From positions 1 through 10,234 of the IMG/VR virus record IMGVR_UViG_2617271049_000013: a stretch of 10,234 bases of DNA, one strand, 5' to 3'. Shown one piece after another: positions 6,272 to 7,825 of this stretch (position 1 is the first letter of the stretch; every line of letters begins with the position of its first letter). The notes below the pieces were generated by a model, which was given only the letters and a program-made list of their open reading frames with translations, made no database searches and had not been told where the DNA came from. This stretch comes from a virus (taxonomy: Duplodnaviria; Heunggongvirae; Uroviricota; Caudoviricetes). The position numbers and the translations under genes were made by a program.

Positions 6272-6487
6272 ATATGCTACAGAAATGTCATCAGGGATAT
6301 CTAATGCATCAGCGGGCCATGTTCCATTTACTTCATAAGTATTTTTTAGATTAACAGCATAAGGATCATTTACCGTTGTTGGAAGACCAAAACCCGGTAC
6401 GACGAAGCGAAATACTTGCTGGAACTGGAAGCGCGAAAGTCGCCCTTACTGAAGCCATAAAAAGCTTGTCGAATGTCTCAGGGCGTG

Positions 6488-6518
6488 AAGCGGACTATGA
6501 TTATAACATAGTCCGCTT
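6488..6518. repeat. Perfect 12-bp inverted repeat (hairpin) just downstream of the acyltransferase gene
   Basis: AAGCGGACTATG (6488-6499), 7-nt loop ATTATAA, CATAGTCCGCTT (6507-6518). It sits about 30 bp 3' of the acyltransferase stop. The T-run on the minus strand is distal, so it may be a terminator or an RNA stability element. Confidence 0.45.
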
Positions 6519-6548
6519 TAAATATGCTACTTAAGTTCTGAACTCTTA

Positions 6549-7598
6549 TTAGTGTGTTTTTCCTTTTTTGAAACGATGCCTGAATAAATCTACTGGCCTT
6601 TCAACTGTGTAATATAAAAAAAATGAAAATACAATAGTGAAAAAGTATGTAATTGCTGTAGTCATTATTGAGCCATTGGGCACTGGTATACCTAATTTGG
6701 GGATGAAATACTGAATTGTAAGTAGGTGCGATACATAAACAGGATATGACAACATACCAATAAAATTATCGATGCTTGAGTTTTTTGTAAGGTGAAAGAT
6801 TTTCCCAATTAAAAGGGCGAAAGAAATTATTAAGATTATCTTTTTGACTTGATAGTGAAGAGGTATGAACGGGAAGGAAATAATAAATAATAGTATGAAA
6901 GCAATTCCAACTTCAGATACAAATTCATTGTTTCCTGATTCCTGATATGAATTATAATATTTATATGCCAGACTACCTATAAGAAAGATAGATAATTCGC
7001 TTGGGAAAAAACGATAAGTCCAAGGGTCAAATGAGAAGTCTTTCCCAATGAGGATGATTCTCACTAATTCCGAAGCAACGATTAGTAAAATGATAAATCT
7101 CGTACTTTTTTTTAAAATAAATGGTGCGAGCGTGTAAAATGTTAACTCAATTCCTAATGACCATCCTTGTGGTAACAATAATAACTTAAATAATGGTGGT
7201 GTACTATCACCATAAAATGAGACAAACGTTAATTCCCCGTGTTTAACGCCCAAAAACATTGCTATGTCCTGTAGGAATATTGTTGCATTTGTTAAAATTA
7301 AAAAAAAGGTAGCAGAAATAGGAAGTTTTGACAAATTTTCAGCGTAAGAATTGATACCATGAACCAATGTTAGAGACATTAATGCACAAATAATGTAAAG
7401 CGGATATAAACGAAGATATCTGCTTATCCAAAATTTTCCTTTTGTTTCATATGTAGAAATAATCATGGACATATAAAATCCAGATATGATATAAAAAATC
7501 TGAACAGCTGTTTCACCACCAACTAATTTCAATAGTTGATTGGAATTACAATGGGCGCCAACCACGGCTAAAGAAAGTAGTAGTCTGATAATTCCCAT
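6549..7598 (-). CDS. Acyltransferase family 3 integral membrane protein (Oac/OafA-like)
   Basis: 349-aa polytopic membrane ORF. Motifs characteristic of acyltransferase_3: GIIRLLLSLAVVGAH near the N-terminus, FYIISGFYMS, RYLRLYPLYI, and PQGWSLGIELTFY (WSL..E..FY). Strongly AT-rich. An in-frame TAG lies 4 codons upstream of the ATG and the RBS is weak. Confidence 0.8.
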   Translation of the reverse strand: MGIIRLLLSLAVVGAHCNSNQLLKLVGGETAVQIFYIISGFYMSMIISTYETKGKFWISRYLRLYPLYIICALMSLTLVHGINSYAENLSKLPISATFFLILTNATIFLQDIAMFLGVKHGELTFVSFYGDSTPPLFKLLLLPQGWSLGIELTFYTLAPFILKKSTRFIILLIVASELVRIILIGKDFSFDPWTYRFFPSELSIFLIGSLAYKYYNSYQESGNNEFVSEVGIAFILLFIISFPFIPLHYQVKKIILIISFALLIGKIFHLTKNSSIDNFIGMLSYPVYVSHLLTIQYFIPKLGIPVPNGSIMTTAITYFFTIVFSFFLYYTVERPVDLFRHRFKKGKTH

Positions 7599-7696
7599 AA
7601 CTAATCGCTAAGTAAATGATTATTCCGAGTTGGAATTATAACACTTATGAACGCGGTAAGATAGATGTCCAGGGTGGATAACCTCAGATTTAATGA

Positions 7697-7825
7697 ATTC
7701 TTTCGCTAGAGCATTGGGGCTATTCGGGCAGAACATTGCTTCAAGAAAGCGCTAATAAAGTGACGATTATCTATGATGTTGGCGTGTCAACTTTGTATAA
7801 GAGGTTGCCAGTAGGGGAGGAATAA
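7697..7825 (+). pseudogene. 3' remnant of a Pin/Gin/Hin-family serine DNA invertase (HTH domain only)
   Basis: Translation ends ...NKVTIIYDVGVSTLYKRLPVGEE*, matching the C-terminal HTH of Pin/Gin (…QKVAIIYDVGVSTLYKRFPAGDK). An in-frame TGA at 7694-7696 bounds it and no catalytic N-terminal domain is present. Confidence 0.6.

Follow-up and report, generated by a model that had tools for sequence, protein, structure and literature searches.

An opposite-strand gene for a membrane acyltransferase lies at the place where an e14-type prophage would be expected to carry its invertase gene, pin. The first-pass annotation of this DNA described it as cargo that had replaced the recombinase and that might be truncated at its N-terminus. 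The locus raises the question of whether the gene is complete, how it came to occupy the site of pin, and what its product may do. The DNA analysed here (the window) is the whole stretch of 10,234 nucleotides; it is 100% identical to Escherichia coli HG977190.1 (GCA_000731355.1), including a gap of 10 Ns at 4246-4255.

A reduced e14-type prophage at icd

The layout was established by comparison with e14 of E. coli K-12 and with a 31-kb relative in strain PS1Thumoskin9. The window covers a strongly reduced prophage of the e14 family, about 10 kb in length, at icd, with the following features:

1-930, + strand: 309-aa ORF in the position of lit
1144-2274, - strand: intE
2252-2497, - strand: xisE
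3227-3757, + strand: phage ORF
up to 5383, + strand: tail-fibre gene
4905-4930, no strand: Din-type (pix/gix-like) crossover site within the tail-fibre gene, the sole one left, CTCTCGAAAACCTTGGTTTGGGAGAA
5383-5985, + strand: tfaE
5957-6362, - strand: tfa′, missing its first ~8 codons (called ORF only 5957-6271; PF02413 match)
6359-6495, + strand: 3′ end of an IS110-family element, 137 bp (last 102 bp of the transposase gene and 35 bp of IS end)
6488-6518, no strand: hairpin with a 12-bp stem, 31 nt downstream of the acyltransferase stop codon
6496-7699, no strand: foreign AT-rich segment, 1.2 kb, 31.9% GC
6549-7598, - strand: intact AT3-only acyltransferase gene (349 aa, ATG start, ~10 transmembrane helices)
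7635-7643, - strand: candidate extended -10 element TGtTATAAT (read by eye; 36 nt upstream of the ATG; poor -35)
7700-7825, + strand: pin 3′ remnant (PinE residues 143-184 and stop, the last 42 codons; tblastn E=7e-10)
7932-8357, + strand: mcrA pseudogene (G-run frameshift at ~8023-8031; ~460 bp deleted at the 3′ end)
8544-8708, + strand: icd 3′ remnant or duplicate, the right end of the e14-like element
from 8811, - strand: iraM, then ycgX

The element shares with K-12 e14 the integration site marked by the icd 3′ duplicate, the gene order, intE and xisE (91% identity), and tfaE, the 3′ end of pin and mcrA (92% identity). It differs in that only ~10 kb are left, pin is reduced to 42 codons, mcrA is a pseudogene, one crossover site and the alternative fibre tip (Sv′) have been deleted, and the e14 cargo genes lit, ymfD and ymfE have been swapped for other genes. 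The decay of mcrA, through a G-run frameshift and a 460-bp deletion, was probably separate from the events at the acyltransferase locus.

Two claims about the right side of the acyltransferase gene were confirmed: a 3′ remnant of pin adjoins it, corresponding to PinE residues 143-184, and the acyltransferase gene occupies the site of most of pin in the e14-like element at icd. The first 19 codons of the remnant are strongly diverged, its DNA is 92% identical to that of K-12 from 7757 on, and it gives a weak match to HTH_7. An extension of the remnant upstream of 7700 (reading ERGKIDVQGG...) was rejected, having no support from HMM or BLAST.

The left neighbour had been taken for the distal end of the invertible segment, which is absent; instead, 6359-6495 is an IS110 terminus fused to the 5′-cut tfa′, and the left part of the region originally marked out (6396-6495) is a terminal piece of IS110, not a spacer. 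tfa′ is 93% identical to the tfa gene of a UMNK88 prophage, with homology ending at ~6362, 25 bp before the start codon of that gene. The IS110 piece has 99.3% identity to positions 2984-3120 of its reference locus, the end of a 1,521-bp IS that is frequent on Klebsiella plasmids; with just its final 137 bp, the window holds no complete ~1.5-kb element. The two homologies overlap in four bases (ATAA, 6359-6362), which is the signature of an illegitimate, microhomology-mediated deletion. The stretch 6385-6535 (GRPK...) was also considered as the helix-turn-helix at the C-terminus of a second serine recombinase; this was ruled out because the stretch is 99% identical to the 3′ end of an IS110-family transposase gene and the IS terminus.

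Beyond tfa′, the reference prophage continues with Sv′ (387 bp), a second crossover site and the invertase gene. The window has neither Sv′ nor a second crossover site, and of pin it lacks codons 1-142. A search of the window with the Din crossover consensus gave one match (0.08 expected by chance) at 4905-4930, the point where homology to K-12 e14 flips orientation. A 44-nt inverted repeat (5169-5212 and 6341-6384) was considered as a pair of crossover sites and rejected, being 75% complementary and located elsewhere than the site indicated by the K-12 comparison. What is left of the Pin/Din switch is pin 143-184, one crossover site and the 5′-truncated tfa′; with three quarters of pin lost along with Sv′ and the second crossover site, the segment cannot invert.

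The idea of cargo replacing a recombinase stands insofar as the acyltransferase gene is where pin was, but there was no clean swap: the IS110 remnant and the microhomology junction indicate a multi-step decay that also removed the alternative fibre tip and one crossover site. The history may be reconstructed as follows. Foreign DNA with the acyltransferase gene would have entered pin near codon 142, and an IS110-family element would have lain 53 bp past the acyltransferase stop codon. A microhomology deletion from inside IS110 to about codon 8 of tfa′ would then have taken out the body of IS110 together with Sv′, the second crossover site and the 5′-terminal three quarters of pin, leaving the tail-fibre inversion switch dead. 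This succession of steps (insertion, arrival of the IS, deletion) is a proposed one, and no intermediate genome that would document it was found. The neighbourhood of the acyltransferase gene is a gene graveyard (pin, mcrA, tfa′, IS110).

The acyltransferase gene and its product

The opposite-strand gene for a 349-aa protein of the acyltransferase_3 family is present as annotated. Its product matches PF01757 (Acyl_transf_3) with E=4.2e-20 and 72.5 bits (cut-off 31), passing the threshold over nearly the entire profile (residues 3-329 against profile positions 6-325 of 326), and PHROG 3333 (O-acetyltransferase) with E=1.3e-28. Searches of NCBIfam and PADLOC gave no match to the acyltransferase, leaving it with no equivalog-level family hit, and Rfam gave no match anywhere in the window. 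The strong AT-richness that had been remarked on is real: the tail-fibre module has a GC content of 49.7%, whereas the ORF has 31.8% and the non-e14 segment 6496-7699 has 31.9%. Other parts of the window share this composition, with values of 31-34% in ORF1, in the mcrA remnant and in the chromosomal flank. The acyltransferase segment is foreign, horizontally acquired DNA.

Of the genes that can be recognised in the 2.6-kb stretch 5986-8543, only the acyltransferase gene is intact; tfa′, pin, mcrA and the IS110 transposase gene have all been truncated or frameshifted, which fits selective retention. In the e14-like element as a whole, few other genes have survived intact. Comparison with a 72% identical homologue from Citrobacter gave pN of 0.16 and pS of 0.74, values which indicate that the family is under purifying selection.

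The suspected N-terminal truncation is refuted by the alignment of 20 homologues, all of which begin with MG[ILV][IL]R in the same column, at identities down to 39% (Citrobacter freundii 72%, metagenomic sequences 55-63%, Herbaspirillum, Methylomonas and others); as judged by these homologues, the N-terminus is native. Eight residues are invariant in the alignment: R5, H16, F35, S39, G40, R60, R63 and G208. R5 and H16, with 10 residues between them, form the R/K-X10-H motif of TM1 that was defined for AT3 proteins (Pearson 2020, PMC7448272); F35-Y-I-I-S39-G40 is the FFXISG motif of TM2, R60-Y-L-R63 is the RXXR motif of TM3, and G208 is the TM6 glycine, one of the AT3-defining positions. Essential residues of OafA include R14, H25, R69 and R72 (PMC7448272; PMC9833829). 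The loss of essential N-terminal residues that the first-pass annotation had named as a sign against its proposal is not seen: R5, H16, F35, S39, G40, R60 and R63 are all kept.

An AlphaFold2 model built from the 20-sequence alignment (pLDDT 90.2, pTM 0.90) has ten predicted helices (2-15, 28-49, 53-80, 145-161, 166-188, 198-218, 225-244, 249-271, 275-301 and 311-343) and a long structured loop between TM3 and TM4 (81-144), so that the predicted structure has the ten helices and long TM3-TM4 loop of the AT3 fold. Among solved structures there was neither a sequence match nor a fold match to the acyltransferase, nor any AT3 structure for comparison; a fold search of BFVD returned one match, a 637-aa viral protein.

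The signals for expression are less clear. An in-frame stop lies four codons 5′ of the ATG. The start codon is not preceded by a Shine-Dalgarno sequence of the GGAG kind, which bears out the description of the ribosome binding site as weak. A consensus promoter scan called no full sigma-70 promoter upstream of the gene. The sole promoter-like element within the 101-bp upstream flank is the extended -10 element TGtTATAAT, which the scan did not call because the -35 fails; it is a candidate for the promoter of the acyltransferase gene. Of the downstream hairpin that had been reported, the 12-bp stem exists, and the 91-nt stretch folds at -22.3 kcal/mol (z=-4.4), but the IS110 terminus supplies 8 of the 12 nt of one arm, no U-tract follows on the acyltransferase (-) strand, and the terminator scan made no call; the hairpin is not a native terminator.

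Known acyltransferases, relatives and distribution

The AT3-only architecture of the protein is also that of Oac, WecH and Lag-1 (PMC9558356), and AT3-only proteins act on many glycans, including enterobacterial common antigen (ECA) in E. coli (PMC9558356). Oac (OacA) of Sf6, OacB, OacC, OacD and the Oac of phiV10 are prophage-carried, AT3-only O-antigen O-acetyltransferases. The acyltransferase resembles them in having the AT3 domain only, ~10 helices, ~340 aa, the RXXR and FFXISG motifs, AT-rich DNA and carriage by a prophage, although the e14 relic is decayed; it differs in lying within pin of a decayed e14-type element, not beside int and att of a P22-like or SfII-like phage. There is a precedent for its place next to tail genes: in an SfII-like prophage, oacC is likewise beside them. 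Close kinship of the Oac type, as had been suggested, does not hold: the protein is not near Sf6 Oac or other known phage acetylases, and a tblastn search of 50,697 phage records (E<=1e-3) gave only two weak hits, a Vibrio phage (26%) and a faecal contig (23%). The phages Sf6, phiV10 and those of OacB-D, assumed to be present among these 50,697 records, were not returned. The link to the Oac family is at the superfamily level only, via PHROG 3333.

OafA and OafB of Salmonella (the GtrC family) belong to the same Pfam family, and the essential residues of OafA in the TM1 R-X10-H and TM3 RXXR motifs are present here; the acyltransferase differs in having neither an 11th helix nor a periplasmic SGNH domain, and sugar transfer must fall to the AT3 domain alone or with a partner. 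WecH (YiaH) of E. coli, the AT3-only O-acetyltransferase of ECA, is likewise a standalone AT3 protein that acts on an Und-P-linked glycan and is encoded outside the biosynthetic cluster; in contrast, it is a conserved chromosomal core gene, whereas the acyltransferase gene is a rare foreign prophage gene, absent from 5,426 complete RefSeq E. coli genomes.

The entire window is matched at 99.76-100% by five NCBI assemblies, the source of HG977190.1 and four others of the same layout. Carriers include GCA_000731355.1, GCA_016115025.1, GCA_029410375.1, GCA_045069175.1 and GCA_015132915.1, as well as the genomes that have EER0127252.1. The exact acyltransferase protein was found on 16 contigs, with the same arrangement at all of the places shown, and near-identical variants, annotated as acyltransferase family protein, on ~100 further E. 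coli contigs; the commonest of these variants are full length. Some database variants have lost their final 22 residues to a frameshift in a T8 tract. Frameshifted forms of 335 and 356 aa occur, and the 356-aa form differs in the last two residues only. Neither the 5,426 complete E. coli genomes nor the PLSDB plasmids gave a DNA match to the segment 6496-7699, and the chromosomal flank of the window has at most 98.6% identity to any of these genomes. A single-sequence search of 185,579 species-representative genomes found no close relative of the acyltransferase, and the best match of a profile search in the same set was 41% identical. Scans for exact 22-mers returned only an unrelated homologue sharing the codons of DPWTYRFFP from JGI metagenomes, and no match from IMG/VR.

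More distant relatives were found in two kinds of context. The Citrobacter-type homologue (72%) has tail-fibre genes on one side and the beginning of a Din-type invertase gene on the other, and is on the strand opposite to both; its relative position equals that in the window, but the junctions differ and the flanks share no homology, and no convincing crossover sites were found around it. The homologue of Herbaspirillum frisingense (46%) is found at the end of a prophage, directly behind the genes for baseplate, fibre and holin, and a 63% identical homologue adjoins a small serine recombinase gene that is not of the Din type. Homologues of 58% and 51% identity are in polysaccharide clusters with Wzy-family proteins, glycosyltransferases, initiating transferases and sugar-nucleotide enzymes. 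So far as gene neighbourhoods can indicate, these contexts support a prophage-cargo enzyme that would act on an Und-P-linked surface glycan. In the prophages of E. coli (e14-like), Citrobacter and Herbaspirillum, this AT3 subfamily is found each time just beyond the fibre genes.

Probable function and alternative explanations

The most probable explanation, to which we assign a probability of roughly 0.6, is that the gene encodes a complete, probably active AT3-only acyltransferase, acquired horizontally and fixed as cargo in the ~10-kb e14-family relic at icd of a small E. coli lineage. Its role is likely to be the O-acylation of a surface glycan, probably O-antigen, and prophage-borne acylation of this kind seems the most reasonable function. 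By analogy with the family, the ten-helix protein would reside in the inner membrane, acyl-CoA would reach through its pore, and the arginine and histidine of TM1 and the arginines of RXXR would be used in acyl transfer. The acyl group, most likely acetyl, would be transferred to a sugar of an extracytoplasmic glycan, with O-antigen as the likeliest substrate. With its O-antigen acylated, the cell would differ in antigenic type and in its properties as a phage receptor, and the serotype conversion and superinfection exclusion originally proposed may be among the effects.

A less probable but quite possible alternative is that the enzyme is active on another substrate: ECA (as WecH), capsule or K-antigen, colanic acid, LPS core or osmoregulated periplasmic glucans. 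The diversity of glycans used by AT3-only proteins would allow this, as would the absence of an equivalog-level family match and the occurrence of homologues in polysaccharide clusters generally, not O-antigen clusters specifically; however, the prophage AT3-only genes of known function (Oac, OacC, OacD, the phiV10 homologue) are mostly O-antigen acetylases, and both polysaccharide-cluster contexts contain genes for a Wzy-type polymerase or ligase. We consider it unlikely that the gene is a silent or decaying relic that arrived with foreign DNA, has little or no expression and persists only through the youth of its lineage. The divergence among carrier assemblies is only ~0.2% over 10 kb, so the lineage is young, and a relic would be in keeping with the weak ribosome binding site, the lack of a full sigma-70 promoter, the broken phage genes on both sides and the 335-aa and 356-aa frameshift variants. 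Yet the ORF is full length with every hallmark residue kept, so are the commonest variants (~100 contigs), the 356-aa variant is altered at its very end only, and survival as the sole intact gene in 5986-8543 fits selective retention.

The position of the gene invites a further explanation, that it is a cassette captured by Din-family invertases at secondary crossover sites, which would account for the E. coli gene and its Citrobacter relative lying between tail-fibre genes and an opposite-strand invertase gene. The like position and orientation in the window and in the Citrobacter-type locus, and the small serine recombinase gene beside the 63% homologue, are in its favour, but it is very improbable: no crossover-like site flanks the acyltransferase gene, the single site being 1.6 kb away; the left junction is an IS110 end with 4-bp microhomology, and the right junction is inside the coding sequence of pin; the Citrobacter-type junctions are different, with neither shared flank homology nor convincing inverted sites; and the serine recombinase beside the 63% homologue is not of the Din type. 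A broader proposal, which we regard as speculative and improbable, though less so than capture by invertases, is that this AT3 subfamily is repeatedly carried along with the tail-fibre/invertase module in temperate phages, masking the glycan that the phage's own fibres recognise and travelling with fibre exchange, and that the E. coli copy has outlived its phage as a domesticated determinant of an as yet unassigned O-acylation of O-antigen.

Returning to the favoured reading of a complete acyltransferase kept as prophage cargo, an active enzyme would O-acylate a surface glycan in a defined E. coli lineage. Serotyping reactions, vaccine epitopes and susceptibility to phages that bind glycans could all be affected, and the enzyme might explain O-acetylation where the O-antigen cluster has no gene for it. 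Current understanding is not overturned, as prophage-borne AT3 acetylases and the decay of e14 are both well known, and an intact acyltransferase gene in a decayed e14-type prophage is an ordinary kind of prophage cargo. The locus is a worked example of prophage decay, in which cargo has been kept while the inversion switch, the restriction gene and the tail genes were eroded by insertion, IS activity and microhomology deletion.

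Length variants and relatives of the acyltransferase

The 349-aa acyltransferase gene, which lies on the minus strand at window 6549-7598, contains three homopolymer runs of eight nucleotides:

Window 6616-6623, T8 as read on the sense strand
Gene nucleotides 292 and 486, the other two 8-nt runs, sense strand

The 335-residue variants of the protein found in databases (P0127 and P0131, in six contigs) are exactly what removing one nucleotide from the T8 run (6616-6623) would produce, and the 356-residue variants result from loss of one nucleotide in an A5 run. These differences in length could reflect either on/off slippage or sequencing error.

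A homologue with 72% identity was located in a Logan contig, where its protein matches one from Citrobacter freundii:

L007 1-2098 (Logan SRR11192622), locus of the 72% homologue (protein match MBC6504113.1)

There it is flanked by a fibre/chaperone gene pair and by the beginning of an invertase gene (MLIGYVRVSTNDQ), is encoded on the strand opposite to both, and takes the site usually occupied by the inverted alternative fibre cassette.

Junctions on either side of the gene

The terminus of the IS110-family remnant (AAGCGGAC) forms, together with the adjacent flank, a perfect palindromic stem of 12 bp (window 6488-6518); no such stem is formed by the flanks at two other copies of the same insertion sequence. 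The stem may bear on target choice by this IS110-family element. At the other junction, the pin remnant is about 30% identical to PinE over its first 19 codons (window 7700-7756) and about 90% identical over its last 23, an unevenness that suggests either mosaicism involving a different allele of an invertase or relaxed decay beside the junction.

Losses in the tail module and mcrA

Window 3813-5383, which includes a run of Ns at 4246-4255, is a single orf of 519 codons in gap-free sister assemblies. Its product joins a DNA-circularisation/baseplate-hub N-terminus resembling Mu gp43 to a tail-fibre collar and C-terminus, and this fusion indicates that the tail module has undergone a large internal deletion. 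The mcrA gene is also degraded:

Window 7932-8357, mcrA pseudogene with extra bases in a G-run and loss of its 3′ part

The run (approximately 8023-8031) is G8 in the window and G7 in one Logan contig, and neither length keeps the reading frame of K-12. About 460 bp are missing from the 3′ portion, among them the HNH nuclease region.

Genes between icd and intE

One AT-rich orf is located upstream of intE:

Window 1-930, plus strand (locus at 16669-19317 of full contig L136), orf of 309 codons

Its product has no match in Pfam, PHROG, NCBIfam or PADLOC, and among 5,426 complete genomes of E. coli only four contain the orf. In full contigs it adjoins a gene for a 445-residue HEPN_Toprim_N protein, and both are situated between icd and intE, the slot in which e14 of K-12 carries lit, ymfD and ymfE. 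Because the two genes occupy the position of lit/ymfD/ymfE, they may constitute an anti-phage defence system.
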